Source: Gemmata obscuriglobus
GTDB taxonomy: Bacteria; Planctomycetota; Planctomycetia; Gemmatales; Gemmataceae
NCBI RefSeq assembly: GCF_008065095.1
Contig: NZ_CP042911.1
Location: forward strand, 5,970,001 to 6,002,000
Direction: 5' to 3'
Length of the DNA stretch: 32,000 bases
Shown here: positions 2,376-27,708 of the stretch, one piece after another
Layout: each line of letters begins with the position of its first letter
How positions within the stretch are numbered: position 1 is the first letter of the stretch
Notes under the pieces: generated by a model
What the model was told of the DNA's origin: nothing
The model's database searches: none
Seen by the model: the letters and a program-made list of their open reading frames with translations, nothing else
Position numbers and translations under genes: made by a program

Positions 2376-2420
2376 ATCGCTGCCTGCTGAACCCGGCACG
2401 GCAGCGATTCGTCGTTTCTG
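2376..2420 (+). terminator. probable intrinsic terminator
   Basis: 9-bp stem ATCGCTGCC / GGCAGCGAT with a 15-nt loop, followed by TTCGTCGTTTCT. Confidence 0.45.
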
Positions 2421-2679
2421 GCCTCTCATTTCGCTTTGTAAAGCTGGGCTGCAAGACTTGCATCGGCAGCATCTACACCGGCCAGCACCTTCTTTCCGAT
2501 CCGCTCCCGAACTGGAGCAAAAAGCTTCACTCCACTACTGAGATGGCATTTTCAGATTCGGTTGTACCGCGCACGGAGAAAGCCAGGGTCGGGTAATTCG
2601 GTAACGGTTGCTGGACTGGGACGGGGCTGCGGGTTACAGGATATGTATAGCCCGCACCCCACCACCGAGTCGCACCATC

Positions 2680-3069
2680 ATGGCCAAGAAGAAAGCCGCC
2701 GAGCCGACCGTTGAGACCCCGGCCGAGGAGACCGCCCCCGCCGAGAAGATCACCCAGCGGGTCGCCGTGCAGAAGGCACTCGACGAGGGCAACGAACTCC
2801 CTGTGGACGGCGTGCCCTACGTTAAGGAGAAGTTCGGCATCACCCTCAGCAACCAGGCGTTCTCGACCATAAAGTCGAAGATCACCACGGCGGGGAAGAA
2901 AGCTAAGTCCACGGCGAAGGCCCCCGTCGCGGTTCCGGCTGCGGCCCGCACTACCTCCCCGGCGAACGGCACCATCGGGGTGGCGGGCCAGGTCGAAGCG
3001 ATCAAGGCCCTGTGTGACAAACTCGGCGCGGACCAGGTAATCACCATCGCCAAGCTGTTCACCAAGTAA
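2680..3069 (+). CDS. hypothetical Lys/Ala-rich protein (129 aa)
   Basis: ATG at 2680 (MAKKKAAEPT...) inside track ORF 2608..3069. Coding-like composition, and it ends 16 nt before a strong terminator. No family recognised. Confidence 0.65.
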   Translation: MAKKKAAEPTVETPAEETAPAEKITQRVAVQKALDEGNELPVDGVPYVKEKFGITLSNQAFSTIKSKITTAGKKAKSTAKAPVAVPAAARTTSPANGTIGVAGQVEAIKALCDKLGADQVITIAKLFTK

Positions 3070-3085
3070 CGGTCAGACAACGAAG

Positions 3086-3130
3086 CGGCCCCGGCACTTC
3101 TCGCGAGTGTGCCGGGGCCGTTGTCGTTTT
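3086..3130. terminator. bidirectional intrinsic terminator between the 2680..3069 gene and the tRNA-like gene
   Basis: 12-bp perfect stem CGGCCCCGGCAC / GTGCCGGGGCCG. It is followed by TTGTCGTTTT on the + strand. A weaker T-containing tail (CTTCGTTG) follows it on the - strand. Confidence 0.7.
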
Positions 3131-3143
3131 AAAGGGTCAGAAG

Positions 3144-3216
3144 TGCGGAGGGTGGGGTTCGCACCCACGGCTTCGGGGGATTAGCCCGACGAGTTAACTA
3201 ACTACTCCACCCCCGC
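3144..3216 (-). tRNA. aberrant initiator-like tRNA (anticodon AAU), possibly a pseudo-tRNA or tRNA mimic
   Basis: 73-nt cloverleaf on the minus strand: acceptor GCGGGGG/CCTCCGC, D stem GAGT/ACTC, anticodon stem TCGGG/CCCGA, loop CTAATCC, T stem GTGGG/CCCAC, discriminator A, no encoded CCA. The D loop, T loop, position 37 and variable loop are non-canonical (see findings). Confidence 0.6.
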
Positions 3217-3760
3217 AATCGGCCGGCTCGGGCGTCAGGCAACAAGAGTTAGAGGCCCACGCGCGTCGATCGGTTCAACTCTTTGTCCGCCCGTGTCGGT
3301 GGTGACGGGCATCGCGCGTCGGCGGGATTCGGAATGGTGTATTGGCGGGGCCACAGCCCCTTTTCGTCGACCGGACCCGGTGCAAACAACCAACTCGTCA
3401 TGACACCCGCGGCACGTCGTTGACTGTGCCATCACCCAGCTTTACTCCCGTTGCGCGTGGGGCTTACAAGCAAACCAGAATCGCCGGTCACCTCGGCTTT
3501 ATTCGGCACCAAGATAAGTGTTTTCTGCCCCCACGCGCGAGTTGTAGCTCCTCCAGTCACGGAATGTACTCTTTCCGTAAAGTCGCAACGGTTACACCGG
3601 TCGCGTTGCAACCACGTCCGCGGCGATTACAGACTCGAATGCCACCAAACGCTTGAAATCCTAGGTTGTGGAGCGATTTCGACCAAATCATTCACGATCC
3701 GGCATGGCCGGTGCTTTGATGCTTTCCAACGAAGGAAACTCAACGGTAAGGAAGCCGACC

Positions 3761-3955
3761 ATGACCCCGATTACCAGCACCACCGAAGTCACCCCGGTTG
3801 CCGCCGCGATGGAAGTCGCCGCCGCCGAGAAGATGCTCTGCGACATGGCGTATGTCCTGAAGCTCACCCGCCGCGTGAAGGCGGAGATGTCCGCCGAAAA
3901 GGCCCCCGAGAAGGCGATCATCGCCCGGACCTGGGAGCGCGTGCTGGAGGCGTAA
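3761..3955 (+). CDS. small hypothetical protein (64 aa), paralog of 2180..2353
   Basis: ATG at 3761 preceded by AAGGAAG, inside track ORF 3668..3955. Shares motifs with ORF 2180..2353. Converges on the nuclease gene with a 1-nt gap. Confidence 0.45.
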   Translation: MTPITSTTEVTPVAAAMEVAAAEKMLCDMAYVLKLTRRVKAEMSAEKAPEKAIIARTWERVLEA

Positions 3956-3956
3956 C

Positions 3957-4256
3957 TCAGGGCTTACCGCGGTACGGTTCCGCCAGGCCACGGTCCAGCA
4001 TCGCGTCACTCAGCGACGGCGTCTCTGCCGTCCCGCACTCGCCGAGGAGCCGCCCATACTTCTCGCGCTTTCGCACATAGCAGCGGACCTCTTTCCCCTC
4101 GATCATCAACCGCATGGCGTCCTTAGCTTCCTGGAAGCCGGGCTGCCCGCGTTCCACAGAATCGATCCGGGCGAGCCGCACGCGCTCGTCGCCGCACCGG
4201 AGAGTATCACCGTCGATGGCGGTGCAGAGCGCGAAGACGTAGAGGAGCGGGATCAC
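3957..4256 (-). CDS. staphylococcal-nuclease (SNase/thermonuclease)-like nuclease, 99 aa
   Basis: IDGDT, VRLARIDSVE and KYGR match the SNase Ca-binding and catalytic constellation (D21, R35, D40, E43, R87 equivalents). There is a 4-nt ATGA overlap with the upstream gene. Confidence 0.8.
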   Translation of the reverse strand: MIPLLYVFALCTAIDGDTLRCGDERVRLARIDSVERGQPGFQEAKDAMRLMIEGKEVRCYVRKREKYGRLLGECGTAETPSLSDAMLDRGLAEPYRGKP

Positions 4257-5242
4257 CGTCCCTCCACGAGTGTGACCCGATTTCGGTAAGCCGAAGCCAC
4301 CAGGTCATCAGCCGCATCGTAGTCCGGTTTCTCGGGCAGCGCTGAAAGCCGCTGGCACTCTTCCAGGCGCACCATCCCGTCCTCGATCAACTCCGCCACC
4401 TGCCGGTACGGCAATTGGCCTTTACGGATCTGGAGCAGTAGTTCGGCCTCGGGCCGCGGGTAGCTCACCGTGTGGTGCGTCAGCAACTCTTCCGCCTCCC
4501 GGCACACCCGCACGGCATGCATGAGCGCCTTCCAGTCCACACCCTCGTTGGTCTCCGCCAGCCGCGCCCGGTGGCCGTACTCGTCGAGCAGGTGCTGGTA
4601 GATCTTGAGCGCCTCCTTGAGCGTGACGTGCTCCTGCGCCTTCCGGTTGCAGACCGACACCATCCGCACCACGCACTCGGGCCGACCGCGCAACGAGTCC
4701 GTGAGGAACTCGACGTGCTCCTGCCCGCTCATAATCGCTATCAGCTCGTCCCAGTGCTGGGACAGCTTGCAGGCCGGGTAGCTGGCCTCGATGCGGTTCT
4801 GCAGGAAGCCGACCATCGCACGTGTCACTGCGACGCGCGAGCCCTTGATCCCGTATTTATTGGCCTGCTGGCGGCAATACCCGGCGAACGCGGCAACCCC
4901 ACGGTGAAGCCACAGGTGCTTATTGGCCCGAATCTCGTCCCACAGGGGCAACGACTCAATGATCCACCGTTCCGGCGTGAACAGCATCGTGATGGCGACC
5001 GTCTGCCCGTCCAGCAACAGCTTCATGTACTTCTGGAGCGAGAACGACTCGAAGTCGATGTCGTCCGGCCCGTTCTTCTGGGTGCCGTCTTGCTTCGTCT
5101 TCACGTTGATCGCGTTCTGGACCCGCTGGAGCAGGATCTCGCGACCGTCGGGGAAGTGAACCGCCTTGTAGTCGTGATCGCTGGTGGGGACGTTCGTGCC
5201 GTAGACGTGGGAGCCGAACTGCATGCGGACGAGCGCGGTCAT
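4253..5242 (-). CDS. Pol-beta superfamily nucleotidyltransferase, RlaP-like (as I recall Pfam PF10127)
   Basis: The N-terminal FGSHVYGTNVPTSDHDY fits hG[GS]x9-13Dx[DE]. Overall length and layout are like the predicted nucleotidyltransferases of phages and plasmids. ATGA overlaps at both ends. Confidence 0.8.
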   Translation of the reverse strand: MTALVRMQFGSHVYGTNVPTSDHDYKAVHFPDGREILLQRVQNAINVKTKQDGTQKNGPDDIDFESFSLQKYMKLLLDGQTVAITMLFTPERWIIESLPLWDEIRANKHLWLHRGVAAFAGYCRQQANKYGIKGSRVAVTRAMVGFLQNRIEASYPACKLSQHWDELIAIMSGQEHVEFLTDSLRGRPECVVRMVSVCNRKAQEHVTLKEALKIYQHLLDEYGHRARLAETNEGVDWKALMHAVRVCREAEELLTHHTVSYPRPEAELLLQIRKGQLPYRQVAELIEDGMVRLEECQRLSALPEKPDYDAADDLVASAYRNRVTLVEGR

Positions 5243-5469
5243 GCGGCCTCGTCCATCACGCGATTCATTGCGGTCGATGGCGTGTAACCCGCCAGCCGAT
5301 TGCCGTCGGGCCGGATCGAGCGGAAGATCAAGTCACGCGTGCGCCCGCACATCAGGTCGCCCGCGGCTTTCCGGTACGGGAAGATGAACCGTCGCACCTC
5401 GGCCGGGAACGTGTCCAACTTCAGCCCGACGTCCTTATCGCTCAGGTGGGCCACCGTATCCGCCACCAC
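5239..5469 (-). CDS. hypothetical protein (76 aa), first gene of the NTase/nuclease operon
   Basis: GTG start at 5469 with an in-frame TAG immediately upstream. The stop overlaps the NTase start (ATGA). The IS3 element ends 8 nt upstream of the start codon. No family recognised. Confidence 0.5.
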   Translation of the reverse strand: MVADTVAHLSDKDVGLKLDTFPAEVRRFIFPYRKAAGDLMCGRTRDLIFRSIRPDGNRLAGYTPSTAMNRVMDEAA

Positions 5470-5517
5470 ACGCTACAGTGGACCCCATTGTCTAGACCAA
5501 AAAGTTGCTATCCTTCG

Positions 5518-6288
5518 CTACTGTTTCGTCGGGGCCTTCGTGGCTCCGACGCCATACACCTGAGCCGGGGTGCGGTAGTCCAGGGACTGGTGTAACCGCT
5601 CGGTGTTGTAGAACCCGAAGTACGCCCGGAGCCCACTCTCCAGGGCCGGCACCGACTCGTAACCCTTGAGGTACACGTCCTCGTACTTGACGCTCCGCCA
5701 CAGGCGCTCCACGAACACGTTGTCCAGGCACCGGCCCCGCCCGTCCATGCTCACCGCGACCCCGGCCCGCTCCAATCGCCCGACCCACGCGGCGGCCGTG
5801 AACTGGACTCCCTGGTCCGTGTTGAACACCTCCGGCTTGCCCCGGCCCAAGGCCTCCTCCAGCATGTCCTGGCAGAATGACCCGTCCAACGTGTTGGACA
5901 GTCGCCAGGCCACCACGTACCGGCTGAACCAGTCCATCGTTGCGGCCAGGTACATGAACCCGGTGGGCATCGGGATGTACGTGATGTCCGTGCTCCACAC
6001 CTGATGGACCCGGTCGATGGCCACGCCCCGCAACAGGTACGGGTACACCTTGTGCCCGGACCCGACCGACAGCTTGGGCTTGGGGTACAGGGCCTCCAAC
6101 CCCATGATCCGCAACAGCCGCTGCACCCGCTTGCGGTTCACCTCGTGGCCCTGGGTGCCCAGCCACGCGGCCAGGCGCCGGCTCCCGTAGAACGGGCACG
6201 TCGTGTACTGCTCGTCGATCAACCGCATCAGCGTCAGGTTCTCCGCGCTCTCCGGGGTCGGCTCGTAGTACACCGTCGAGCGGTTCAA
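5518..6288 (-). CDS. IS3-family transposase OrfB (rve/DDE integrase core)
   Basis: WSTDITYIP ... NTDQGVQFT ... ERLWRSVKYE ... YNTERLHQSL is the classic rve domain. This frame stays open upstream as far as the A9 run at 6377-6385. Confidence 0.9.
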   Translation of the reverse strand: MNRSTVYYEPTPESAENLTLMRLIDEQYTTCPFYGSRRLAAWLGTQGHEVNRKRVQRLLRIMGLEALYPKPKLSVGSGHKVYPYLLRGVAIDRVHQVWSTDITYIPMPTGFMYLAATMDWFSRYVVAWRLSNTLDGSFCQDMLEEALGRGKPEVFNTDQGVQFTAAAWVGRLERAGVAVSMDGRGRCLDNVFVERLWRSVKYEDVYLKGYESVPALESGLRAYFGFYNTERLHQSLDYRTPAQVYGVGATKAPTKQ

Positions 6289-6358
6289 TCCGATCAGCTC
6301 GCACTGGCGCCGGACGCTCAGCTCCGGGTGCTCGGCCTCGATCCGGGCACGCTTGGCC

Positions 6359-6646
6359 TCAGCCGAGGGCGGCCGATTTTTTTTTCACCCAGTCGAGTTC
6401 CACCTTGAGGCGGCCGATCTGCTCGTACAACTCGGTCGTCTTGTCTTCCGGGGGGCCGGTGCCCTTCGCCCCCGAGGCGAACACGGCCTCGGCCCCGGTG
6501 AGCAACTGCTTCTTCCACCCATGAATCAGGGTCGGGTGGACGCCGTGCTGACTCGCCAGTTCGTTGATGGTCTTGTCGCCCTTGAGGGCCGCCAGCGCGA
6601 CCTGGGCCTTGAACGCCGCCGAGTGACTCTTCCGCTTGCCCGCCAT
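6359..6646 (-). CDS. IS3-family transposase OrfA (HTH)
   Basis: MAGKRKSHSAAFKAQVALAALKGDKTINELASQHGVHPTLIHGWKK... is typical of IS3 OrfA. It ends in the A9 run (..DWVKKKSAALG*). Confidence 0.9.
   Translation of the reverse strand: MAGKRKSHSAAFKAQVALAALKGDKTINELASQHGVHPTLIHGWKKQLLTGAEAVFASGAKGTGPPEDKTTELYEQIGRLKVELDWVKKKSAALG
6377..6385 (-). promoter_or_regulatory. A9 slippery run (T9 on the + strand) at the orfA/orfB junction
   Basis: Nine consecutive T at 6377-6385 encode KKK at the end of OrfA. orfB lies in the +1 frame relative to orfA (see finding). Confidence 0.55.
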
Positions 6647-6776: not shown

Positions 6777-7456
6777 CTAAAACAGCGACCGCTGCTGTAG
6801 CCTCTTCACCCGCACCGCGAACGCCGGAACGGCCCCTTGCGCTCCTGGCCCATCATCGGGCTTATCGTCCGCAGGCTTCGTTTCTTCCGGCTTCGGCTCC
6901 TCGACCGGTTTCGCCTCTTCCGCCATAACCACTCGCTCACTCCGCCGCCGTTCCGCTTTCGGTTTCTCACGGACCCGCGCCGGTGCCGCTTCCACCTGGT
7001 GGCCTGCCTTCAGCGCCTTGATCTGCTCCGCGAGTTCGCCCGCCGTGGGTTCGCCCTCCGCTGGGGTGCCCGAGAGGGATGTCTTCAGCCGGTCCCGCAG
7101 GCCCGTGAGCTCTTCCATGTACGCTGTGTGCTGGAACACCCGCCCGATCCGGGCCTCGTAATCCGCGAGCTGCCGCTGTGCGAGTTCGCGGTCCTGCTTC
7201 GCCCGGTCGATCAGCTCGCCGTAGGAGTCCGCAAGCCTCCCGAGCGCGTTCAGCACGGCGCGCGGCCCATGTGACGAAAGCAACCCGGTACGCGAGGCTT
7301 GCCCTTCGAGGTAAACGTCCGCTCCCCCGACGGGATGACGCTCGATGCCGAAAGCCAAGCCGCGGTACTTCCCGAGGGGAAACCGGCGGGTGTAGCTCAC
7401 CGTCTCGGGGATGCGGTCCAGGGCGTTCGCCAGCGCGGTGTCCTGGGGAGTGATGT
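6777..7456 (-). pseudogene. C-terminal fragment of the IS-disrupted DarB-like methyltransferase/helicase gene
   Basis: It continues in frame from 9054 once the IS4-like element and one TSD copy are removed (..GGRNITP|QDTALANALD..). The first four codons of track ORF 6777..7469 (VHST) are IS inverted-repeat sequence. Confidence 0.8.
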
Positions 7457-9053
7457 CAGTGCTATGCACATCTTGGATTTGTATAACTGATTGCGGATTG
7501 CTGATTTAGGGTTTTCACTGCGACGAAATTGGGGTTAACCGAGTGGTCGTGGGACGCGGGGTGGTGCGGGGTCCGCGACCCGGGACATGGAGGTCACCGT
7601 GATTCTGCCACCTCATCAGCGCGTCCCACGCTCCCAACCGCACGCGCCCACGGACTTCGCGCGCCAGGTCCTGGAGGGCCTGCCACTGGCCCACGCGTCG
7701 CTCGCACTCTTCGCCTATGGCGTTCCCGACCCGGTCCTCGCGGACCTCTACGAGCGACATCGGGGACGCGGCTATGAGGACGTCGTGACCTTCGCCCAAC
7801 TGGTCACCTGGATCTTCGATGCGCTCATCGAACACCAGGGCTCGGGGCGGCAGGCCCACCTGCGACGCCACCGGCAACCCGACGACGGGTGCCACGAAGC
7901 GTTCTACGGCAAGCTCCGGCGCATCCCCCGGGGCCTGAGCGAAGCGTTCCTGCGGGACGTCACCGACCGGTTCACCGCCCTGTTCCCCGAGGTCGTCGCG
8001 CACCGCCTTCCGACCTCCTTCGACCGCCTGGAGGTTCTGATCCTCGACGGCAAGAGTCTCAAGAAGGTGGCCAAGCGACTCGTCGACACGCGGGGCACAC
8101 CGGGCAAGCTCTTGGGCGGAAAACTGCTCGTGGCGTACCGGCCCCGTGACGGGTTGGTGCTCGACATGGCGGCCGATCTCGATGGCGAAACCAACGAGGC
8201 CAAACTGATCCCCGATTTGATGCCCCGAGTGCACGCCCGAGGCGGTCCGGCGAAACTGGTGGTCGGGGATCGGTTGTTCTGTGCGTCGAAGCACTTCGCC
8301 GAGTTCACCAAGGACAATGGTCATTTCGTGGTGCGGTACGCGCGGACCCTGTCGTTCGAACCCGACCCGAAGCGCCCCGCGGTCACGACCGCGGACCCAT
8401 CCCAACGAGCCGTGGTCGAAGAATGGGGGTGGGCCGGGAAGCCCAAGGACAAGCTCCGCCGGTACGTCCGGCGGATCACCGTCGCGCGCCCGGTGGGCGA
8501 AGCGATTACAATCCTCACGGACCTGCTCGATTCGGCCCCATACCCGGCGACCGATCTGTTGGACCTGTACCGCATCCGGTGGACCATCGAAGGCACGTTC
8601 CAAAAGGTGACGGCGATCTTCGCCCTGGGTCGGTTCATCGGTTCGACACCGGAGGCGACCGTGTTTCAGGCGTCGATGTGTTTCGTCCTCGCGAACGTGG
8701 TGCAGGTCCTCCAGGGCTATGTGGTTGCGAAGCGGAAGGTGACCATCGACGACCTCTCGACGGCGCAGTTCTGCACGGACTGGCATCGTCAGTTGGCCGC
8801 GCTCAAGGAGTTGGTCGAGGTGTCGATGATCGTGTCCCTGATCCCGACGGATCAGACGGCAGAGAGTGTGGGAACGTTGTTGGATCAGTTATTGGGCACG
8901 ATGTGGAAGCCGGGCTGGGACAAGACACGCAACAAGGCGCCCCGTGCCCACCCGCACGCCGCGAAACAGAAGGGGGCACACACCTCCGTCCAACGGCGTC
9001 GACAAGCCCACAAGCCCAACGAGGATCCCTGAACTCAGTTGTGCACAGCACTG
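7457..9053 (+). mobile_element. IS4-family-like insertion sequence (1,597 bp)
   Basis: IRs CAGTGCTATGCAC (7457-7469) and GTGCACAGCACTG (9041-9053). Perfect 9-bp TSD GAGTGATGT at 7448-7456 and 9054-9062. Confidence 0.85.
7587..9032 (+). CDS. IS4-family DDE transposase (481 aa)
   Basis: Y-x2-R-x3-E signature in LYRIRWTIEGTFQKV, with upstream DDE-like blocks (ILDGKSL.., VVGDRLF..). Confidence 0.85.
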   Translation: MEVTVILPPHQRVPRSQPHAPTDFARQVLEGLPLAHASLALFAYGVPDPVLADLYERHRGRGYEDVVTFAQLVTWIFDALIEHQGSGRQAHLRRHRQPDDGCHEAFYGKLRRIPRGLSEAFLRDVTDRFTALFPEVVAHRLPTSFDRLEVLILDGKSLKKVAKRLVDTRGTPGKLLGGKLLVAYRPRDGLVLDMAADLDGETNEAKLIPDLMPRVHARGGPAKLVVGDRLFCASKHFAEFTKDNGHFVVRYARTLSFEPDPKRPAVTTADPSQRAVVEEWGWAGKPKDKLRRYVRRITVARPVGEAITILTDLLDSAPYPATDLLDLYRIRWTIEGTFQKVTAIFALGRFIGSTPEATVFQASMCFVLANVVQVLQGYVVAKRKVTIDDLSTAQFCTDWHRQLAALKELVEVSMIVSLIPTDQTAESVGTLLDQLLGTMWKPGWDKTRNKAPRAHPHAAKQKGAHTSVQRRRQAHKPNEDP

Positions 9054-16517: not shown

Positions 16518-16850
16518 CGAACTGCAACGCAATTCCTCTGCCGCCCGCGGCACGCTATCAGTGAAGCCTCGCAGCTACGCGCCACACCTCGCCCAGATCG
16601 TTCCCAGCCCCCTGATCACTCGCCCAGCGAACCTACCGCACACTGTGCGTCCGCGAGGGTACGTCCATGGACCAAGACCCAGACATACTGCTCGCAATCG
16701 CCCAGTGGCTAAGCGAAGGCGGGCGAAGCTTGCCCGACGATTAGTTCAGCAATCCCGGCCGAAGGCACGTTGCCCCGGCCTCATTCCCACCCATTACGGG
16801 GCGGAGGTGTTCGATGAACCGGACGGGCGATGCCCCACAAAGGGGGCTTC

Positions 16851-17690
16851 ATGACCAAGCTGAGCTACGAGGTGGTCACCAAGGCGGTGACATGGCTCAT
16901 CCTTCTGGAGCAGATCCGCCAGCAGGCAACGGACGAGGCGGATGTCCACCTCACCGAAAGCATTCGACGCCACGGCGTACTGCAACCGATCGGTGCGAGG
17001 CCGAAAGGAGATAAGGAAGGTAAGGAGGATAAAGGGGAGGTGGTTTGGGGTCACCGCCGACTCCGATGCGCCATCGCGGCGGGCCTTTCGGAAGTGCCCT
17101 GCGTGATTCTCGACAGGGACATGAGCGAGTCGGACTTCCTCGCCCTTCAAGTCGTCGAAAACACCGCCCGTGAGTCTCTCTCTCCTTTCGATTTGTGGCA
17201 GGGCTGCGTGCGTTTGATGGATGCCAATGCTGGCTGGTCGCAGAAGGATTTAGCAAAGGCTATCTCACTGGACGCATCGAGCATCACCAGGATCATGTCG
17301 GCTTCAAAGTGCGTCTCAGCCGTGATCGAGTCGTTCAAGACGGGCGCACTGAGCCAGTCCGACGTTTACGCCATCTCGAAGGTTGAGGAGTCGGCACAGG
17401 CCAGTTTGCTGGCGCTCAAACTGAGCGGCGCGGCCAACCGCAATGTACTGGAGCAAGCAGGACGGAAAACCAGGGCTCCGAAGACCGAGGAGACAGTCAA
17501 GACGAGCAGCCTGCGGATCGCCCTTGGAGAGGTCGTCATCACGGTCAAGGGCGCGGACCTGACGCTCGGACTCGTAGCTGAGATGCTCGATAAGGCCAGC
17601 AAGGAGGCCGAGAAGGCCAAGACGCAAGGCTTGAACGCGAAAACCGCCGAGCGCGTCTGGAAGGATCGGTCAGCCAAGAAGACCGCGTAA
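16851..17690 (+). CDS. ParB/KorB-like N-terminal-domain protein (279 aa)
   Basis: ParB box VVWGHRRLRCAIAAG preceded by SIRRHGVLQPIG. An HTH-like segment WSQKDLAKAISLDASSITRI follows. The SD AAGGGGG precedes ATG 16851. Confidence 0.8.
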   Translation: MTKLSYEVVTKAVTWLILLEQIRQQATDEADVHLTESIRRHGVLQPIGARPKGDKEGKEDKGEVVWGHRRLRCAIAAGLSEVPCVILDRDMSESDFLALQVVENTARESLSPFDLWQGCVRLMDANAGWSQKDLAKAISLDASSITRIMSASKCVSAVIESFKTGALSQSDVYAISKVEESAQASLLALKLSGAANRNVLEQAGRKTRAPKTEETVKTSSLRIALGEVVITVKGADLTLGLVAEMLDKASKEAEKAKTQGLNAKTAERVWKDRSAKKTA

Positions 17691-18161: not shown

Positions 18162-19737
18162 GTAAGCGTTCACGGGTGATGCGGCAGTGTATCAACAGTT
18201 GGCGAGTAGCGGATTCACAACGTTCTGTTGTTGAGCTTCAGCTGGAACGAGCGTCGGTGCCTTCGCGCCGGTCCGGTGTGCGGTGACGGCGTCGATGAGG
18301 AACGCCAAGACGTTGCGCTTCTGGCGGCGGCACGAGGCGATCACCGTGAGGATTCGTTCCACGAACCGGCTCCCGCGTTCGCTGTCGGTCCCGAAGCTGG
18401 TTTTGCGCCAGCACACGGCGTGACGCACCTCACGCTCGGCCGCGTTGTTGGTCGGTTCCACGCCGACGACACGCGCGAACGTCCACAACGACGCCTCGAC
18501 CGACAACAGTTCCGCGCAGGTCGTGGCGGTCTTGGCGCAGCCGCACGCCGCCCCGTTCCGCAGGTGCGTGCCGACCTGACGACGCAACGCGGGGATGTAG
18601 GTCGAGCGACATGTGGACCGCGCGAGGGTTCCGTCCCGGACCCGATACCAGTTCTCGAACAGGGCGTCCGAACACGCCAACAGAGCCGCGCCGATCGCCT
18701 GTCCGGAACCGCCCCGGTCGATCATCGCCTGGAAATCGCGTCGCAGGTGCGCCCAGCAGAGTTGACGCTTGTACTTGTCGAGGTGCGTGTACACCGGATA
18801 CCGGTCCGTCGTATGCACGGCCGTGGACCCGGCACGCAGGTCATCAAAGGCGGCCCGGCCCCGGGTCCGGCGGATCAGGAACGCCACCACGAACGTGGTC
18901 ACGGCGGCCCACAGCCAGGCCCGCTGACGCCCCTGCTTCCAACCGGTCTCGTCCACGTTGGCCGGGTGCCCGCGGGTGTACACCAGGGCCTGTTCGGCCA
19001 CCGGCTTCAGCGCCTCGGCGGTTCGGTGCTGGAGCTTGCACACCATGGCCGGGCTCAGGGGCAGGCCGAACAGATCGTCGAACAGTTGGCTCGTGCCCCG
19101 CTTGCCCAGACGGCACGAGCCGGTGAGAAGCGCGGCCACCGCCTGCGCCCGGGGGCCGTATCCGGTGCGCGCCTCCGACGGCACCGCGGGCACCGTGGTC
19201 GTGCCGCAGTGGGGGCACCGGAGCCGGTGGCACCGATACTCGGTCACGTGGGGTTTGATAACGGGCAACTCGTGGACCTGATGAATGGCCGGAGCCGGAT
19301 CGTCCCCGGCCAGCGACCGCGAGCAGTCCCGGCACACGGACGGCTTGAGGGTCCGGATCTCATCGGGTGGCAGGAGCGTGCGCTCGGCTTTGGGATGCCC
19401 CGGTTGCCCGCCCCGACGCTTCCCCGAAGGGGCCTTGGGCGGGGCCAGTTTCACCTGCGGAGGATCGGACGAGGGCGGCTTCGACGAGTTGGTGGAGCTC
19501 TGGTTGAGTCGGGCCTTGAGTTCGGCGACCTCGGCCACCAGAGCAGTGATCGTGGCCTCCAAGGCGCGAATATACGCCACCACCGCCGGTGGTAAGTTAT
19601 CGGGCAGTTCCGGCGGTTGAGGAACAGGCGTCATGACGTCTGCTCGATTACGGAACATGCCCGCTTGTGGCAACCGCGTATCCAAACGGGCTAAAATGAC
19701 GGGCAAAAGCGGGTGGCGCACCCCCATGAACGCTTAC
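18162..19737 (-). mobile_element. IS66-family (single-ORF, ISBst12-like) insertion sequence (1,576 bp)
   Basis: Ends GTAAGCGTTCAC... (18162) and ...GAACGCTTAC (19737) give GTAAGCG termini typical of IS66. Perfect 8-bp TSD AAAGGAAG at 18154-18161 and 19738-19745. Confidence 0.9.
18192..19634 (-). CDS. IS66-family transposase (480 aa from ATG 19634)
   Basis: N-terminal coiled segment (ITALVAEVAELKARL), Zn-finger-like CHRLRCPHCG, and core blocks NVDETGW ... DRYPVY ... CWAHLRRDF typical of IS66 TnpC. The track start at 19727 lies inside the terminal IR. Confidence 0.85.
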   Translation of the reverse strand: MTPVPQPPELPDNLPPAVVAYIRALEATITALVAEVAELKARLNQSSTNSSKPPSSDPPQVKLAPPKAPSGKRRGGQPGHPKAERTLLPPDEIRTLKPSVCRDCSRSLAGDDPAPAIHQVHELPVIKPHVTEYRCHRLRCPHCGTTTVPAVPSEARTGYGPRAQAVAALLTGSCRLGKRGTSQLFDDLFGLPLSPAMVCKLQHRTAEALKPVAEQALVYTRGHPANVDETGWKQGRQRAWLWAAVTTFVVAFLIRRTRGRAAFDDLRAGSTAVHTTDRYPVYTHLDKYKRQLCWAHLRRDFQAMIDRGGSGQAIGAALLACSDALFENWYRVRDGTLARSTCRSTYIPALRRQVGTHLRNGAACGCAKTATTCAELLSVEASLWTFARVVGVEPTNNAAEREVRHAVCWRKTSFGTDSERGSRFVERILTVIASCRRQKRNVLAFLIDAVTAHRTGAKAPTLVPAEAQQQNVVNPLLANC

Positions 19738-19806
19738 AAAGGAAGAATCCGGTTCGCTTCCGCCTTCTCCTATGAGGCTTGCTGGAAATGCACCAGAGGC
19801 ACACCA

Positions 19807-21594
19807 ATGAGGTACTGCAGGATCGTCCTGATTCTCGCCATCACCCTGGCTGCGATTGAGTTGCTGCTCCTCATCATTGCGGCCCCAAAGTTCATGACAT
19901 TCCTCGCAGTGGCGCTGTTCCTGATCTACCGCAGCAGGCGGAAGGGACGGCTGGATGCCTTCGGGACTGCGGAGTGGGCTAGTTACGGGGCACTGAAAAG
20001 GAAGGGCATGCTCGAAGCGGGAGAGGGACTGTGCATCGGACTGGTAACCGGGCAACGTCCGACCCTTTGGGCATCCGTGGTTAACTTGTTCCGCCGCAGC
20101 GTCCCGGCCGCAATCGCCTGCGAGCAGCTAGTCATGGCGGTGCGGCAGTTCAACCGGCCTACACCCGAACCGGTGAAAGTGAGGTTAAACAAGGTCGTTC
20201 ACTTAGCAGCGTTCGCACCCACCGGGGTTGGCAAGGGCACGTCTCTGATTTTGCCCTTCCTGCTTGGTTTAATTCGTGACTCGGTGGTGATCTACGACCC
20301 AAAAGGGGAGGCGTGCAATCTTACCGCTCAGAGCTTTCGCGACCGAGGTTATCAGGTGGTGGTGCTCGACCCATACCAGGTCGCCACCAAGACACCGGAC
20401 GGGTTCAATCCGCTGGCGATGATCGACAAGGACTCGCCGCTGGTCATCGATCACGCCAGAGCCATGGCAGCCGAGATGGTTGTGAGAACTGGTAACGAGC
20501 CCGATCCGCACTGGAACGACTCCGCCGAAGCCTTCATCGCGGCCATGATCGCGCTCACCTGCCTGTACGGCGACGGGGCTAACCGAAGCCTCCAGGCCGT
20601 GCGGAGCCTGCTCACCGACCCGGAACGGATGCAGGCCGCAATCAAGGTGATGGTCGGAGACACAGCAATGTCGGGGATGATTGCTCGCATGGGGCATCAG
20701 CTCGCCACGCTCAAGGACAAAGAGCTTGCAAGCGTCCTGAGCACGACGAATCGGCACATGCGGTGGCTCGACACGCCAGCAATTGCGAACTCGACGCGGG
20801 AATCGACCTTCGATCCGCTGGACCTGACCAAGAAGCCGCTGGCAGTCTTCGTTGTCCTTCCGGTCGATCAGATGAAGGCCCAGGCGGGATACCTCAGGCT
20901 CGTGATGGGCTCTTTGTTGCGAGCCTGTGTCGCCGGTGGCCTGCAAGAGCAGCACAAGGTTCATTTCGTCCTGGATGAGGCTGCCTCACTGGGGGAGATG
21001 GATGCGCTAGAACAGGCGCTCAACATCGGACGCGGCTACGGGATACGAATTCAACTTTATTACCAGTCGACCGGGCAACTGAAGAAGTGCTGGGGCGTTG
21101 ATGGTGGCGATCAGGTGGTGCTCTCCAACACCACGCAAATCTTCTTCGGGGTTCGGGACAAGGACACGGCAGAGTATGTGTCGGCCATGCTCGGTGAAGA
21201 GACCATCTGGGTGGAATCGAGCGGGAGCAATTCCGGCGATTCCACCTCGGTCAACCGCAACGATCCGGGTGGAAGCTTCAGCGTCTCACGGGGGCGAAAC
21301 ACGGGGCTCCAACAGCAGGCCCGGAAGCTGTTAAAGCCAGAGGAGGTGGTCGCCCTGGATGAACGTACCGCCATCACCCTGACGCCCGGAGTGAAACCCA
21401 TCGCGACGACTTTAGTCCGCTACTACGAGGAACCGCTAGGAAACGGGGCGGGCCGTTGGCGGCGGCTGCGAATCAGGGTGGAAGTGTGGCTCGCCTCCAT
21501 CCTGCTGCTGGTTGTGTTTTCCGTGCTGGGGGCACAGATGACACGGGCCATGTTTCACCCCCAACATCCGCCGCTCCGACGGGCGGCCAAGTAA
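19807..21594 (+). CDS. traG: type IV secretion coupling protein, TraG/VirD4 family (595 aa)
   Basis: N-terminal hydrophobic TM region, Walker A APTGVGKGTS, Walker B HFVLDEAASLG. The start at 19807 is supported by the ATGA overlap with the reconstructed upstream ORF. The track's N-terminal extension is IS-end and frame-shifted sequence. Confidence 0.9.
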   Translation: MRYCRIVLILAITLAAIELLLLIIAAPKFMTFLAVALFLIYRSRRKGRLDAFGTAEWASYGALKRKGMLEAGEGLCIGLVTGQRPTLWASVVNLFRRSVPAAIACEQLVMAVRQFNRPTPEPVKVRLNKVVHLAAFAPTGVGKGTSLILPFLLGLIRDSVVIYDPKGEACNLTAQSFRDRGYQVVVLDPYQVATKTPDGFNPLAMIDKDSPLVIDHARAMAAEMVVRTGNEPDPHWNDSAEAFIAAMIALTCLYGDGANRSLQAVRSLLTDPERMQAAIKVMVGDTAMSGMIARMGHQLATLKDKELASVLSTTNRHMRWLDTPAIANSTRESTFDPLDLTKKPLAVFVVLPVDQMKAQAGYLRLVMGSLLRACVAGGLQEQHKVHFVLDEAASLGEMDALEQALNIGRGYGIRIQLYYQSTGQLKKCWGVDGGDQVVLSNTTQIFFGVRDKDTAEYVSAMLGEETIWVESSGSNSGDSTSVNRNDPGGSFSVSRGRNTGLQQQARKLLKPEEVVALDERTAITLTPGVKPIATTLVRYYEEPLGNGAGRWRRLRIRVEVWLASILLLVVFSVLGAQMTRAMFHPQHPPLRRAAK

Positions 21595-21872: not shown

Positions 21873-22003
21873 TCAGGCGGCCGGGGTGTGCGCTCCGCTG
21901 GACTTTCCGGCGGCACCCCGGCACCCGAGGCTCTACATGCCCGTGGGCAGGGAGCTGACAGAAGATCGATAGCGCGTTTCGTGTTCCAACACAAGGGAGA
22001 TTC

Positions 22004-23260
22004 CAGTAGTTTCAAGTTGGCGGCTTGGTTTTGTTGGCCGATCGTGCAGTAGTAATGGACTTATTTTCGCCATCTGTAGGTGCCAGCCCATCGGCCAACA
22101 GTATCAGGCATACCGCCGCCAGTGTCCACCCGAGGCCGCGGGCTGAGCGGGACCACAACCAGGCGTTACGCAGGATCAGCCCGACGGCCACCCACAGGAG
22201 TCGCACGACCCCATCGGTGGTCGAGGTCCGGGGCCGAACCTGCCCCAACTGGCGGTAGCTGCTCTCGATCCCGAATCGGGTCCGGTACAGGTCCCGAATC
22301 GCCACCGGGCTCCCGCTCACCCGCCACGCCGCGTACAGTAACTTCTTGCTCCGCCGGCCCCCGGTCCGCCGGTACCGGTAGCTCTTGTGAGCGATCACCA
22401 CGTGCACCCGCACCGAGGTGCCCCGATCCGCGTGGGTGTACGCATATCGACCCGCGCCCCGCCGCCGCACGGCCCGCAACCCGACCCCCTTCACCCCGGG
22501 CCGGGGCTTGCGGCCCCGGACCACGGCCGGGATCACGAACGGCACACCCCGCGCCTGGAGCAACCGCATCACCGCGATCGAGAAGAACGCCTTGTCCAGC
22601 AGCGCGACCCGGACCGTAACCCGTGCCGCCGTCACCTGATCCAACAGCCGGGTGAGCACCGCGGTCATCGGCTCCTTCTCGCCCACGGCCGTCAACCCGA
22701 GCGTGTACCGGTCCGGTCCCCCGACGAGGCACGCGGTGGCGTACGTGTGGAACGTGTGGGTGCCGCCGGCCCCCTTGGACCGGGTGGTGTCCCGGTTCGG
22801 CGTCCCGAAGTACCCGATCCGGTGGTAGTCGATCGCGACCCGAGCCGCCCGCTTCCGCTTGCCGAGCGGGGCGTGGAGGGCCGGCCGCAACCGCCGCTCG
22901 AGGGTGCGGCGCCGCTTGGGCAGCGTGAGGTACAAGCAATCCCAGATGGCCTGCCCGGACGGGGCGTCGGCGATCGCGGCACAGGCCGCGGCCACCGAGC
23001 GGGCGAACGCCGCGGCGAACAGCACCACCCGCCACACCACCTCGGGTGTACAGGTGCGGCGACGCTTGGGCAGTTGGACCGCACGGCCGAGCCAGTCGGT
23101 CAGGACCGGACGGAGGTGCCGGGTGGCGTGGGCCGGGGTGGCTCGGATAGACTGACGTTTGGGTCGCATGGGGGCTCCGACAGTGGAGGCGTGGTAACCA
23201 CCATTGACCGGTAAACCCATGCGGCCCGCTACTCATAAATCGCCCAACTTGAAACTACTG
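22004..23260 (-). mobile_element. ISH3-like insertion sequence, copy B (1,257 bp)
   Basis: Same IRs as copy A. 5-bp TSD GATTC at 21999-22003 and 23261-23265. I detected one difference from copy A (22189 C vs 13149 G), which is synonymous in the transposase. Confidence 0.9.
22012..23220 (-). CDS. DDE transposase (402 aa), identical protein to 12972..14180
   Basis: The track translation is identical to copy A. Confidence 0.85.
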   Translation of the reverse strand: MGLPVNGGYHASTVGAPMRPKRQSIRATPAHATRHLRPVLTDWLGRAVQLPKRRRTCTPEVVWRVVLFAAAFARSVAAACAAIADAPSGQAIWDCLYLTLPKRRRTLERRLRPALHAPLGKRKRAARVAIDYHRIGYFGTPNRDTTRSKGAGGTHTFHTYATACLVGGPDRYTLGLTAVGEKEPMTAVLTRLLDQVTAARVTVRVALLDKAFFSIAVMRLLQARGVPFVIPAVVRGRKPRPGVKGVGLRAVRRRGAGRYAYTHADRGTSVRVHVVIAHKSYRYRRTGGRRSKKLLYAAWRVSGSPVAIRDLYRTRFGIESSYRQLGQVRPRTSTTDGVVRLLWVAVGLILRNAWLWSRSARGLGWTLAAVCLILLADGLAPTDGENKSITTARSANKTKPPT

Positions 23261-25894: not shown

Positions 25895-26146
25895 GTGTTG
25901 ACCGTGAAGCAGGCCGCCGCGCACGCCTGCGTGTGCGAGTCTATCACCCGGGCGTGGGTCAAAAGGGGGCTGCTGCCGCACTTCCGCATGAGCGCGTCGG
26001 GCAAGCCGGGGCAGGGGAAGATACTGATTCAGGTGGAAGACCTCGACGGCGTGATGGCGGGATTCAAGTTGGGGGCGAAGGAGCCGGAGCCCGCCCCGGC
26101 CCCGGTGAATCGGCCGCGTTCGACGTTCAAGCACCTTAAGTTCTGA
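25895..26146 (+). CDS. xis: excisionase/AlpA-like helix-turn-helix DNA-binding protein (83 aa)
   Basis: LTVKQAAAHACVCESITRAWVKRGLLPHFRM is a typical Xis/MerR-type HTH. Strong SD AGGAGG precedes GTG 25895. Its 3' end overlaps the integrase 3' end by 11 nt. Confidence 0.7.
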   Translation: MLTVKQAAAHACVCESITRAWVKRGLLPHFRMSASGKPGQGKILIQVEDLDGVMAGFKLGAKEPEPAPAPVNRPRSTFKHLKF

Positions 26147-27323
26147 CGCCCGCCTCACCTCGCGGGCCGTTCGCCGCGTCCAGCAGGTGCTCGCAGTCCT
26201 TCGACAGCTCCTGGTAGTGCCGGGCCAGCATCCCGGTGTCCCGGTGCCCGAGCAGCGTCGCCACCGTGATCGGGTCGTGCCCCTCCTTCAGCTTGCGGGT
26301 CGCGAACAGGTGCCGCAGGTCGTACATGGCGAACCGCTTCTCCCCCTCCCGGGCCTTCGTCGCCCGCTCCCGCCGCCGCTCCGCCAGTGCTGCCACGTGC
26401 GCCGCCTTCGCCTTCGCCCGCTCGGCCGGGTCGGCGATCTTGTAGCCCTGGAACCGCGGCAGCTTTGGCACGGCGGCCTCCGCCCCCGACATCTTCACCA
26501 ACAGCCGCTGGAGCCGGCACACCAGCGCCTGGGCGGTCCACGGGTTGCCGTCCCGGTTGAGGAACAGCGGCCCGGTGGGCCGGAGGGCGGCCAGGCGGGC
26601 CAGCGTCGCGTGGGCGGCCGCGGACAGGTAGATCACCCGCCACCGCTTCTTCCCCTTCGCCTCCGGCGGCGGCAGTTCGACCCGGCGGAACTCCGGCCGC
26701 AGGTGCCGGGCCTCGATCCGCCGCGCCTCCTGCGGGCGGCACCCGGCCTCGTACGCGAAGGTGAGCAGGTCGCGGAACGGGTCGCTCTCGGCCACGTGCC
26801 CCAGCAGCGTCGCGAAGTCGGCCGCCGTCATGGTGGTGTCGCGCTTGGTCCGCCCCGGCTTCTCCACCCCGCGCAGGGGGTTGGCGGCCACGTACCCGAG
26901 CTTCTCCGCCCACGCGTACGCGCGGGTGACGTCGCCGATGGCGTTCCGCCGCTGGTTCGGCCCCCAGGCCGGTTTGGAGTCCGCCCACTCGGCCACGTGG
27001 AACGGCTTGAGGTCGGCGGCCGGGAGGGTGCGGGCGGTGCGGAGGTGGTCGCAGAACGACTGGACGTGCTTGCGGGCCAGCTCGTAGGTGCGGGGGCTGC
27101 GGTGCTTCTGGCACCAGTCGAGAAATTTTTCGAACACGTCGGCGGCGGTGCGGTCGGATCTGTTGGCGGGGGAAGGGGTCGGCTTCTCGGGCCGGGCCAT
27201 CAGTTCGTGGAACCGGCGGTCGGCCTCCTTCTTGTCGGGGCCGAGGTTGTGCCGGGTGCCGTCGATGGTGACGAAATAGGCGTTACGGTCTTCGCGGAAC
27301 CAGGGCTTCGGTGTGCGGGCCAT
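26136..27323 (-). CDS. int: tyrosine recombinase / phage-type integrase (395 aa)
   Basis: Box I ..AGCRPQEARRIE... Box II YDLRHLFAT ... LLGHRDTGMLARHY supplies the R..HxxR..H..Y catalytic set. The start at ATG 27323 (MARTPKPWF) is typical of the N-terminal arm-binding domain. Confidence 0.9.
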   Translation of the reverse strand: MARTPKPWFREDRNAYFVTIDGTRHNLGPDKKEADRRFHELMARPEKPTPSPANRSDRTAADVFEKFLDWCQKHRSPRTYELARKHVQSFCDHLRTARTLPAADLKPFHVAEWADSKPAWGPNQRRNAIGDVTRAYAWAEKLGYVAANPLRGVEKPGRTKRDTTMTAADFATLLGHVAESDPFRDLLTFAYEAGCRPQEARRIEARHLRPEFRRVELPPPEAKGKKRWRVIYLSAAAHATLARLAALRPTGPLFLNRDGNPWTAQALVCRLQRLLVKMSGAEAAVPKLPRFQGYKIADPAERAKAKAAHVAALAERRRERATKAREGEKRFAMYDLRHLFATRKLKEGHDPITVATLLGHRDTGMLARHYQELSKDCEHLLDAANGPRGEAGVRT

Positions 27324-27708
27324 AGGAAACACCCCTGAAAAGTGCGTGACAAAAGCCACAGCACCCGTCAGGGGTATTATTCCGTACCGCGATTCTGTAC
27401 CAAGTGTCCCGTCGCGAAACCGTTCTCGCCACAAACCCTTGGTATTTCAAGCTCCTCGAGCACAACACTCTTCGAACTCCAACAGGTCTCCACGCGCGAG
27501 ACTTTTCGGCACCGTATCGCGTCGAAGCACTGGAAATCACAGCGTTTCGTGGGAAAGGAGCCTAGGCGTACGCTGTTCACCGATCGGCCGTTCAGATCGC
27601 GTTCGGTGTCCGAGGAAAACACTCCTCGAACCTCTCGATGTCTCTCTGCTATTAACTCGCGGGTTCGGCTGTCGTGTCAGCAAAACTGACACCGCCTCCG
27701 GTTAACGG

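Follow-up and report, generated by a model that had tools for sequence, protein, structure and literature searches.

An initiator-like, tRNA-shaped RNA family of Gemmataceae and its member beside mobile DNA in Gemmata obscuriglobus

A 73-nucleotide (nt) tRNA-like gene with the anticodon AAU lies on the minus strand of a 32,000-nt stretch of Gemmata obscuriglobus DNA (contig NZ_CP042911.1, positions 5,970,001 to 6,002,000), and this whole stretch is called the window here. A reading made from the sequence alone had noted the likeness of the gene to the initiator tRNA, tRNA-fMet, and had proposed three roles, namely a decoder of AUU/AUH codons, a tRNA mimic or decoy, and a structurally conserved relic. 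The question raised by this locus is what an initiator-like RNA with such an anticodon does. In this study, we found that the window copy is a structurally intact member of an RNA family, and the family is very likely a selected functional RNA with a tRNA fold. On balance, we favour the reading that the window gene belongs to a conserved, initiator-derived, tRNA-shaped family that would act as a codon-independent ligand linked to initiation.

The window gene and its family

In the 32 kb, ARAGORN called one tRNA and no other: tRNA-Ile(aat), on the minus strand at 3143-3216. The gene also matched Rfam RF00005 over its full length (52.3 bits, E = 1.1e-8; gathering score 29), which was the sole Rfam match in the window; across 2400-4300, Rfam gave no RNA besides the tRNA at E<=1. 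The parts of the gene are as follows, with loci handled as L001 and so on where they have to be told apart.

3144..3216, minus strand: tRNA-like gene, 73 nt, with G1 at 3216 and discriminator A73 at 3144; CCA not encoded; found by ARAGORN, Rfam RF00005 and the family model
3195..3203, minus strand: D loop AGUUAGUUA, with A18 at 3199 and G19 at 3198, numbered by alignment to L005
3178..3184, minus strand: anticodon loop CUAAUCC, with C32 at 3184, U33 at 3183, A34-A35-U36 at 3182-3180, C37 at 3179 and C38 at 3178
3157..3163, minus strand: T loop UGCGAAC, with U54 at 3163, G55 at 3162, C56 at 3161, G57 at 3160 and A58 at 3159

Read on the minus strand from 3216 to 3144, the RNA is GCGGGGG-UG-GAGU-AGUUAGUUA-ACUC-G-UCGGG-CUAAUCC-CCCGA-AGCC-GUGGG-UGCGAAC-CCCAC-CCUCCGC-A. 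All four helices are present with 21/21 pairs formed, and G5:U68 is the sole G:U in the stems. The gene has a variable loop of 4 nt, A11:U24, G1:C72 and three G:C pairs at 29-31:39-41. The tertiary set U8, A14, G15:C48, G19:C56, U54:A58 and G53:C61 is present, with G18 and U55 replaced. The sequence-only reading had described the same four paired stems, the G5:U68 pair, AAU at 3182-3180, C37/C38, G55, the short variable loop and the missing CCA, together with A11:U24, the three G:C pairs and G1:C72, and the sequence agrees with it on each of these; the scoring with ARAGORN and Infernal RF00005 that it had suggested called the gene.

The family consists of 55 loci with full-length copies, which represent 30 distinct sequences. 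The exact anticodon-arm 20-mer was present, as one copy per genome, in 16 GTDB species genomes. Those with a named genus belonged to Gemmata, Zavarzinella, Fimbriiglobus, Frigoriglobus and Urbifossiella, all of them Gemmataceae, and further matches were found in metagenome-assembled genomes (MAGs) of unnamed Gemmataceae and Planctomycetia, in an Isosphaeraceae MAG (2.2-Mb contig) and in a MAG labelled Singulisphaera. A metagenome search with the seven loop bases unconstrained returned 26 contigs, and extra loci were added by anchoring on neighbouring proteins. The family, found in Gemmataceae and at least one member of Isosphaeraceae, is apparently undescribed; full-text literature searches gave no account of it or of any AAU-anticodon tRNA in Planctomycetes. 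A truncated copy, L007 (2768-2822), lies on a 2.8-kb contig with 3x coverage that is binned as 'Actinomycetales', and this binning is probably wrong. The acceptor 3' strand of L022 (7384-7456, minus strand) is defective (CCCTGTG), which may reflect a pseudogene or a sequencing error.

When the window was compared with L001-L042 by blastn, only the 73-nt gene matched, at 85-93% identity, with two exceptions: 56 nt of terminator in Gemmata sp. IIL30 (L014) and an unrelated IS66 stretch in L005. The copy in L064, an infA-linked locus on a 10.09-Mb contig of a related Gemmata, differed from that of the window by one D-loop base. Across 25 distinct sequences, 99.4% of cells were paired, 0/500 shuffles reached the observed values, and sliding the partners dropped pairing to 47-65%. 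Four pairs carried double changes among these sequences; 3:70 toggled between G:C and A:U five times, and two-sided changes were also found at 7:66, 50:64 and 51:63. The D stem and the anticodon stem are uninformative on selection in the pattern-retrieved set, as the search patterns fixed them. The protein-anchored locus L050 had U13:G22, U27:G43, A29:U41 and A49:U65, which adds changes from G:C to A:U at 29:41 and 49:65, and the loop CUAAUCC and the T loop UGCGAAU were still there. The double changes and the shuffles bear out the earlier claim that the stem differences are compensated and the structure is under selection, and the proposed search of relatives for the same variant and for covariation found the family with its stem changes compensated. 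A relic is ruled out as a description of the family, and a plain pseudogene does not describe it: essentially only the RNA gene is conserved against L001-L042, and compensatory double changes are present.

The likeness to E. coli tRNA-fMet noted earlier was then checked by alignment. The best E. coli matches were annotated tRNA-Met in all 5,426 complete genomes, with 74-76% identity over 96-99% of the query and a median of 4 places per genome; these matches appear at E<=10 and none at E<=0.01, owing to database size. One inspected match, with C1/A72 and CAU, sits within a three-gene tRNA-Met run that has mltA on one side and amiC on the other. The likeness holds on alignment, where the block common to the window gene and the E. 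coli initiator is UGGAG.AG....CUCGUCGGGCU.AU..CCCGAAG. On a covariance model, R1, built from 25 sequences, members reached 85-105 bits, compared with 50 bits for the canonical Zavarzinella tRNA-fMet and <=36 bits for elongators. The window copy, the only one in the window, scored 95.8 bits with every pair intact.

By sequence and covariance model, the bacterial initiator tRNA-fMet, encoded in E. coli by metZWV and metY, is the closest relative of the family. Both have A11:U24, a G:C-rich anticodon stem, C32 U33 and the same arm lengths. Unlike tRNA-fMet, the family has pyrimidine 37 and C38 instead of A37 A38, A18/G55 instead of G18/U55, a 4-nt variable loop and U13:A22. The features that define an initiator are missing from it: CAU is absent from every family member, and G1:C72 was found in 24 of 25 sequences (L022 excepted), whereas the Zavarzinella formosa and E. 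coli initiators have C1/A72. A G1:C72 pair removes the main formylation determinant and would make the RNA a ligand of EF-Tu.

In Z. formosa (L012), the canonical tRNA-fMet (7654-7728; C1xA72, CAU, A29:U41) precedes the family member (7392-7463, minus strand) by about 190 nt, with a terminator of its own between them, and this spacing is consistent with tandem duplication. The anticodon-stem and T-stem states of L050 match those of the Zavarzinella initiator, including A29:U41 in a locus that was found via its protein neighbour. These results point to an origin of the family by duplication of the lineage's own initiator tRNA-fMet gene.

Elbow, anticodon loop and decoding

The sequence-only reading had described broken D-loop/T-loop tertiary pairs and a D loop that had lost G19. 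Positions (18,19)/(55,56) were AG/GC in 29 distinct sequences and GG/UC in one, and mixed states were found in none; all 29 AG sequences carry the T loop UGCGAAN. The member with the canonical elbow, L005 of Isosphaeraceae, has the D loop AGCGGUCA and the T loop UUCGAAU. Alignment to L005 puts the 'AG' of the window D loop on 18-19, so that G19 is kept and G18 became A, contrary to the claimed loss. The tertiary pairs are likewise not broken: G19:C56, U54, G57 and G53:C61 are invariant, and 18/55 is either A/G or G/U. A58 is U in one distinct sequence (L029/L033/L034). The G19:C56 pair is the flat outer face touched by L5, the L1 stalk, the A-site finger, RNase P and T-boxes, and residue 18 intercalates between 57 and 58 with a single hydrogen bond to 55 (PMC4810234). 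The elbow appears to have been remodelled, with solely the 18/55 contact exchanged. A G at the second T-loop position is common in the T-loops of rRNA and RNase P.

An array of 11 tRNA genes packed in 1 kb was seen in a Fimbriiglobus sp. MAG (JAYUFU010000179.1; L002 26-1001, plus strand), several of them with odd shapes (69-71-nt Met and Ile calls). Its final gene, an unrelated tRNA-Thr(CGU) at 928-1001, has D-loop AG instead of GG and the T loop UGCGACU (G55).

The anticodon loop varied at one position of the anticodon. The loop-free search gave CUAAUCC 14 times, CUAAACC 9, CUAACUC 2 and CUAAUUC once; the 30 distinct sequences had CUAAUCC (21), CUAAACC (6), CUAACUC (1), CUAAUUC (1) and the 6-nt CUCGUC (1). 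All 7-nt loops kept C32 U33 A34 A35 and C38, with U, A or C at position 36. Position 37 was C in 27 and U in 2 of the 29 distinct sequences with a 7-nt loop and never a purine, and the discriminator was G in 22, A in 7 and C in 1 of the 30. U36 and A36 were each seen with the acceptor GCAGGGG, with the 9-nt D loop AGGUAGGCA and with the consensus body, so that at least three backgrounds show this variation. ARAGORN assigns near-identical bodies to Ile, Phe or Val, a result that speaks against an ordinary decoder. Canonical tRNAs on the family contigs have GG, UUC and purine 37. The loop CUCGUC comes from the complete genome of Frigoriglobus tundricola (CP053452.2; L047 3928-3999), where ARAGORN reports 'tRNA-???'; it may be either a real divergence or partly an assembly error in a C run.

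Prokaryotic tRNA sets do not include AAU, and a purine at position 37 lends stability to codon-anticodon pairing in the A site, above all with A:U-rich anticodons (PMC8007984). The proposal of a decoder of AUU/AUH found no support in the orthologues, which have AAU, AAA, AAC or a 6-nt loop, pyrimidine 37 and G or A as discriminator. The identity set of E. coli IleRS consists of G34/L34, A35, U36, t6A37, A38, A73, C29:G41, U12:A23 and C4:G69. Here we found C37, C38, G29:C41, G12:C23 and G4:C69 instead, with G73 in 22/30 sequences. These results suggest that the family is probably not a codon-specific adaptor.

Linked genes, transcription and possible role

An open reading frame (ORF) threshold of at least 100 aa first hid two small neighbours, infA and a Lys-rich micro-ORF, and both emerged from the 110 nt upstream of every copy. 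The upstream 75-aa ORF is initiation factor IF-1 (TIGR00008, 108 bits against a cut-off of 61; Pfam eIF-1a match). The infA stop lies 9 nt before the RNA in L003, L004, L006, L008, L013, L020 and L036 and 7 nt before it in L031, and when the IF-1 protein P0080 was used as anchor, 4/4 places had the RNA 9-29 nt downstream. The micro-ORF encodes 32-34 aa (MGKGNNSQGKEKKKPKKxAKPAPVKxxPPPKKK). It has a GAGGU Shine-Dalgarno sequence 6-8 nt upstream and synonymous third-position differences among loci, and these indicate that it is a real gene. It had no match in Pfam, NCBIfam or PDB and 49 database homologues, all of them 'hypothetical'. Examples of the micro-ORF are as follows.

L021 5055-5156, minus strand: micro-ORF
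L048 4001-4102, plus strand: micro-ORF
L047 4046-4147, plus strand: micro-ORF
L050 ~3064-3168, plus strand: micro-ORF

One or the other gene stood directly upstream in 22/42 tRNA-anchored loci, with a spacing of 5-34 nt, and the window has neither; the micro-ORF ended 5-34 nt before the RNA in 14 of the tRNA-anchored loci. In about half of all loci, the RNA lies 5-47 nt from infA and/or the micro-ORF with no terminator between. The order is ORF then RNA in the micro-ORF-anchored L048 and L049, and RNA then ORF in L047, L050-53 and L055-57, where the spacer is 36-47 nt and has no terminator; F. tundricola has infA, the RNA gene and the micro-ORF in this order. In Urbifossiella, the RNA sits with the micro-ORF away from infA (L001 and L073, same MAG). 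In Urbifossiella limnaea CP036273.1 and relatives (L067-L074, ~3050-3465), an RRM_1 gene lies about 320 nt after infA, where the tRNA-like gene otherwise sits. All-against-all ORF clustering found shared proteins only as lineage-level synteny (6PGDH-like dehydrogenase, WD40, desaturase), and a universally conserved protein neighbour of at least 100 aa was rejected on this result. No Fem, L/F-transferase, CDPS or PEARL-type gene was found among the neighbours examined.

A TANNNT box (TATAAT, TACAAT, TAGAAT and others) started at -12 or -13 from G1 in 15/38 unique upstream regions, compared with a mean of 3.0 and a maximum of 9 in shuffles. A -10 hexamer at -12..-7 predicts a start near +1, so that these copies may be made with little or no leader, and the copies that lie 5-9 nt after infA or the micro-ORF must be cut from a longer transcript. 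The window copy has no TANNNT at -20..-9, and a promoter scan of 2500-4500 was empty. Its expression is uncertain, since it is detached from infA and the micro-ORF, lies between prophage and DNA resembling insertion sequences (IS) and an integrative and conjugative element (ICE), and is without the family -10 box. Its flanks are as follows.

3079..3128: GC-rich hairpin, likely a bidirectional terminator, between the tRNA-like gene and the convergent ORF 2680-3069 (plus strand)
3217..3760: upstream non-coding stretch; no gene in NCBI records, and no infA, micro-ORF or -10 box at -12

The hairpin has a predicted energy of -34.8 kcal/mol (z = -4.46), and 0/200 shuffles were as stable, so the strong fold supports the terminator that had been proposed beside the gene. 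It is the only flank common to Gemmata sp. IIL30, where the blastn match 3088-3216 passes through it. The non-coding stretch of about 540 nt had also been noted from sequence, and NCBI records indeed call no gene there; it had no Rfam and no phage match.

The retained initiator-type anticodon stem, together with the repeated adjacency to IF-1 and a basic microprotein, suggests a mechanism in which the RNA is an initiation ligand. The RNA would be transcribed from the -10 box at -12, with a start near +1, or jointly with infA or the micro-ORF, and would be processed and CCA-tailed as a tRNA is. Its role would be that of a tRNA-shaped ligand in or on the initiation machinery and not that of a codon-specific adaptor. 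The most likely target would be the 30S P site, where an initiator-type anticodon stem could bind codon-independently, and the Lys-rich microprotein may be a partner there, perhaps as a ribonucleoprotein. We put forward only tentatively that the family binds the initiation machinery as a codon-independent, tRNA-shaped ligand, the 30S P site being the simplest place for it. A wider version is speculative and rather unlikely: a Gemmataceae-specific module of a codon-blind initiator-shaped RNA, a co-transcribed microprotein and IF-1 would act on the 30S P/A sites codon-independently, for example by storing or gating subunits under stress, or, alternatively, the RNA would start translation at non-AUG NUU codons unformylated. 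An RNA-chaperone or stress role is possible too, since IF-1 binds RNA through an OB fold and, in Urbifossiella, infA is followed by a gene for an RRM protein. A tRNA mimic in the broad sense of a non-decoding, tRNA-shaped ligand is also possible.

Several observations weigh against a codon-independent initiation ligand. The P-site idea takes its sole basis from the retained G:C pairs, and L050 has two of them. Search patterns fixed the D-stem and anticodon-stem bases in most of the set, and the protein-anchored loci are unbiased but few. The 18/55 swap is essentially a single evolutionary event and has small statistical weight. The 20-mer was found in only 16 GTDB species genomes, and the distribution may be patchy. 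As many as 20/42 tRNA-anchored loci, the window included, are without infA and without the micro-ORF; the micro-ORF occurs without the RNA in lower-GC planctomycete contigs (L054, L058, L059, L061/62); and the linkage to both genes could be inherited synteny and not function. Moreover, C32 U33 A34 A35 are conserved, as a decoder of NUU codons would also show. IleRS, ValRS, PheRS and MetRS read mainly the anticodon, and E. coli tRNA-fMet with GAU, GAC or GAA was reportedly charged with Ile, Val or Phe in vivo (Schulman laboratory, about 1988-1991). An initiator body that changes identity with position 36 is conceivable on this ground and could decode correctly. Such an identity-switching decoder is made less likely by pyrimidine 37, A34, the 6-nt loop and a discriminator that varies.

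These data allow the competing explanations to be weighed. An elongator for NUU codons, reading by A34:U Watson-Crick pairing or by I34 and charged as its anticodon dictates (AAU Ile, AAA Phe, AAC Val), would account for the conserved A34 and A35 with variation only at 36 (U, A, C), and G1:C72 would permit EF-Tu binding of an initiator body that, with those anticodons, reportedly accepts Ile, Val or Phe (Schulman laboratory). It is nevertheless distinctly unlikely, given a pyrimidine at position 37 throughout, in place of the purine that stabilises pairing in the A site (PMC8007984). The discriminator is G or A, F. tundricola has a 6-nt loop, and G34 tRNAs already read NNU codons, which leaves no evident need for such an elongator. 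The E. coli IleRS determinants are missing as well, and TadA-type editing recognises the tRNA-Arg ACG loop, which counts against I34. A second, unformylated initiator for non-AUG NUU starts such as AUU, with the first codon position relaxed, would explain the initiator-type anticodon stem with A11:U24 and the infA linkage, for which E. coli metY offers a parallel by its linkage to another initiation-factor gene, infB. Initiation tolerates a first-position mismatch, which falls on position 36, the variable one. We give this initiator a slim chance: G1:C72 loses the main formylation determinant and favours EF-Tu, we know of no plausible enzyme to charge an RNA with A34 and Y37, no NUU-start genes were identified, and the F. 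tundricola loop has 6 nt.

The RNA might instead be a processing or stability element, with RNase P and RNase Z cuts that define or protect the ends of short infA or micro-ORF mRNAs. The 5-47-nt spacers without terminator, in either order, speak for it, as does the fact that the acceptor arm, T arm and elbow, which are RNase P determinants, are conserved best of all parts. This too seems a poor prospect, because about half of the loci stand alone, each equipped with a -10 box at -12 and a terminator, and because the anticodon stem-loop is conserved though RNase P needs none, L050 keeping CUAAUCC despite its stem changes. Still less probable is a decoy or favoured target for attackers of initiator tRNA, among them VapC-type anticodon-loop nucleases and effectors from phages or defence systems. 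An initiator-like anticodon stem with an altered loop would suit this role, and the window copy lies amid mobile DNA, 741 nt from a pair of RlaP-family nucleotidyltransferase and SNase-like genes. This pair has no counterpart beside the RNA in L001-L062 except two weak RlaP-like matches in L017; at other loci, every neighbour that we identified was a chromosomal housekeeping gene, infA or the micro-ORF. Searches of viral contigs, phages and plasmids turned up no copy, and nothing ties the RNA to tRNA-targeting enzymes. Finally, the window copy could be a decaying tRNA-fMet pseudogene or an attachment site kept by mobile elements, as its missing promoter box, its position between IS/ICE-like DNA and prophage and the broken acceptor stem of the metagenomic copy L022 might suggest. 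It has all pairs intact at 95.8 bits and is 1 nt from the infA-linked copy of L064, the family shows compensatory changes, and the 3' half is not repeated in the window or L044. For the family, this explanation is largely refuted, and we regard it as very improbable overall.

Known systems, significance and genomic setting

The nearest precedents are the non-proteinogenic (NP) tRNA-Gly of Staphylococcus and tRNA-Other of Bacillus cereus. NP tRNA-Gly species lack G18, G19, U55 and C56 (PMC4574755). Like the family, these donors for cell-wall pentaglycine are extra paralogues that have given up elbow nucleotides, and they work outside decoding. Their Gly anticodon is retained, and GlyRS charges them for use by Fem transferases, whereas the family keeps G19:C56, has no fixed 'anticodon' and has no linked aminoacyl-transferase. 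tRNA-Other is a predicted pseudo-tRNA at the flank of a genomic island, non-translational, with physiological effects on deletion (PMC3399842). The window copy is like it in bordering mobile DNA, but tRNA-Other has another ancestry and is, as described, a single-species case, whereas the family is cross-genus, mostly chromosomal and infA-linked. Eukaryotic tRNA-Ile has the same genomic anticodon as the window gene (AAU, read as IAU); unlike the family, with its initiator-like body and variable position 36, it is deaminated by ADAT and has purine (t6A) 37 and a tRNA-Ile body. In mascRNA/MALAT1 and in mitochondrial tRNA punctuation, as in the family, a tRNA shape abuts a transcript and is presumably excised by RNase P and RNase Z. 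Elements of the mascRNA type need to mimic only the acceptor, T arm and elbow, whereas the family also conserves the anticodon arm, and many of its copies are independent transcription units.

We describe the family as non-canonical tRNA paralogues whose features are unusually combined and whose genetic link to initiation is specific and open to testing. Nearly all bacterial tRNA genes have purine 37, G18 with U55 and an anticodon matched to the body, and the family breaks these three rules under clear selection. Members will keep being annotated as tRNA-Ile(AAU), tRNA-Phe(AAA) and tRNA-Val(AAC), with anticodons thought unused in bacteria, and such calls would distort analyses of tRNA sets and codon usage in Planctomycetes. 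The A18/G55 pair is a natural experiment on an alternative elbow contact. An RNA that repeatedly appears to share its transcript with IF-1 and an unannotated, lysine-rich 33-aa ORF points to an extra, lineage-specific part of the initiation apparatus that can be tested for, in a lineage already known for unusual cell biology. Should the RNA turn out to bind the ribosome without decoding, or to initiate independently of formylation, this would add a new bacterial use of the tRNA fold.

The region is covered by the G. obscuriglobus records ABGO01000001.1 and CP025958.1 (at ~2.04 Mb). On the 5' side of the RNA gene lie, in order, a small ORF, the SNase-like gene, the RlaP-family nucleotidyltransferase, an IS3 element, a 1,390-aa SNF2-like protein and the two DDE transposase copies, and farther out ParB, IS66, a TraG/VirD4 coupling protein and the tyrosine integrase. 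The further features are as follows.

3957-4256, minus strand: SNase-like nuclease, 99 aa
4253-5242, minus strand: RlaP-family (RNA-repair-associated Pol-beta-type) nucleotidyltransferase, 329 aa
12959-14180 and 21999-23220: near-identical DDE_Tnp_1 transposase elements, 9,040 bp apart
5518-6646, 18192-19727, 19633-21594, 16830-17690 and 26136-27434: further features of the IS-riddled ICE-like region
26136-27434: tyrosine integrase, 23 kb from the RNA gene

The SNase-like gene begins 741 nt away, in agreement with the distance of about 740 nt given earlier for a nucleotidyltransferase/nuclease operon. The two genes overlap by stop and start, a 76-aa ORF (5239-5469) precedes them, and they are possibly a mobile defence or toxin module. 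When the two proteins were searched against L001-L062 by tblastn, two weak RlaP-like matches were found, both in L017 (26-33%, E ~1e-6 to 1e-7). The suggested partnership of the RNA with this operon was rejected on this search.

The ICE-like region contains IS3, IS66, a TraG/VirD4 coupling protein, ParB, the SNF2-like protein and the tyrosine integrase. The duplicated IS is the only long repeat in the window. The 3' 23-mer of the RNA (<=3 mismatches) had no second copy in the 32-kb window or the 21-kb locus L044, beyond which the prophage extends, and a repeat comparison of the RNA 3' half for an attachment site gave no 13-mers in common. Megablast of 2400-5500 against plasmids gave no match, two pattern scans of viral contigs gave 0 matches, and the RNA itself, searched by blastn in phages and plasmids, matched nothing but ordinary tRNA-Met of Acinetobacter and Enterococcus, at ~77%; a phage or plasmid tRNA was ruled out by these searches. 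Either the window copy would have been separated from infA by mobile DNA, or G. obscuriglobus would have a second copy at infA. On the 3' side of the RNA gene, beyond window position 1, L043/L044 (15755-20990) carry CsrA, LysC-like, phage lysozyme and Phage-tail_3 genes, and a prophage or prophage remnant starts there, a few kb from the RNA's 3' end.

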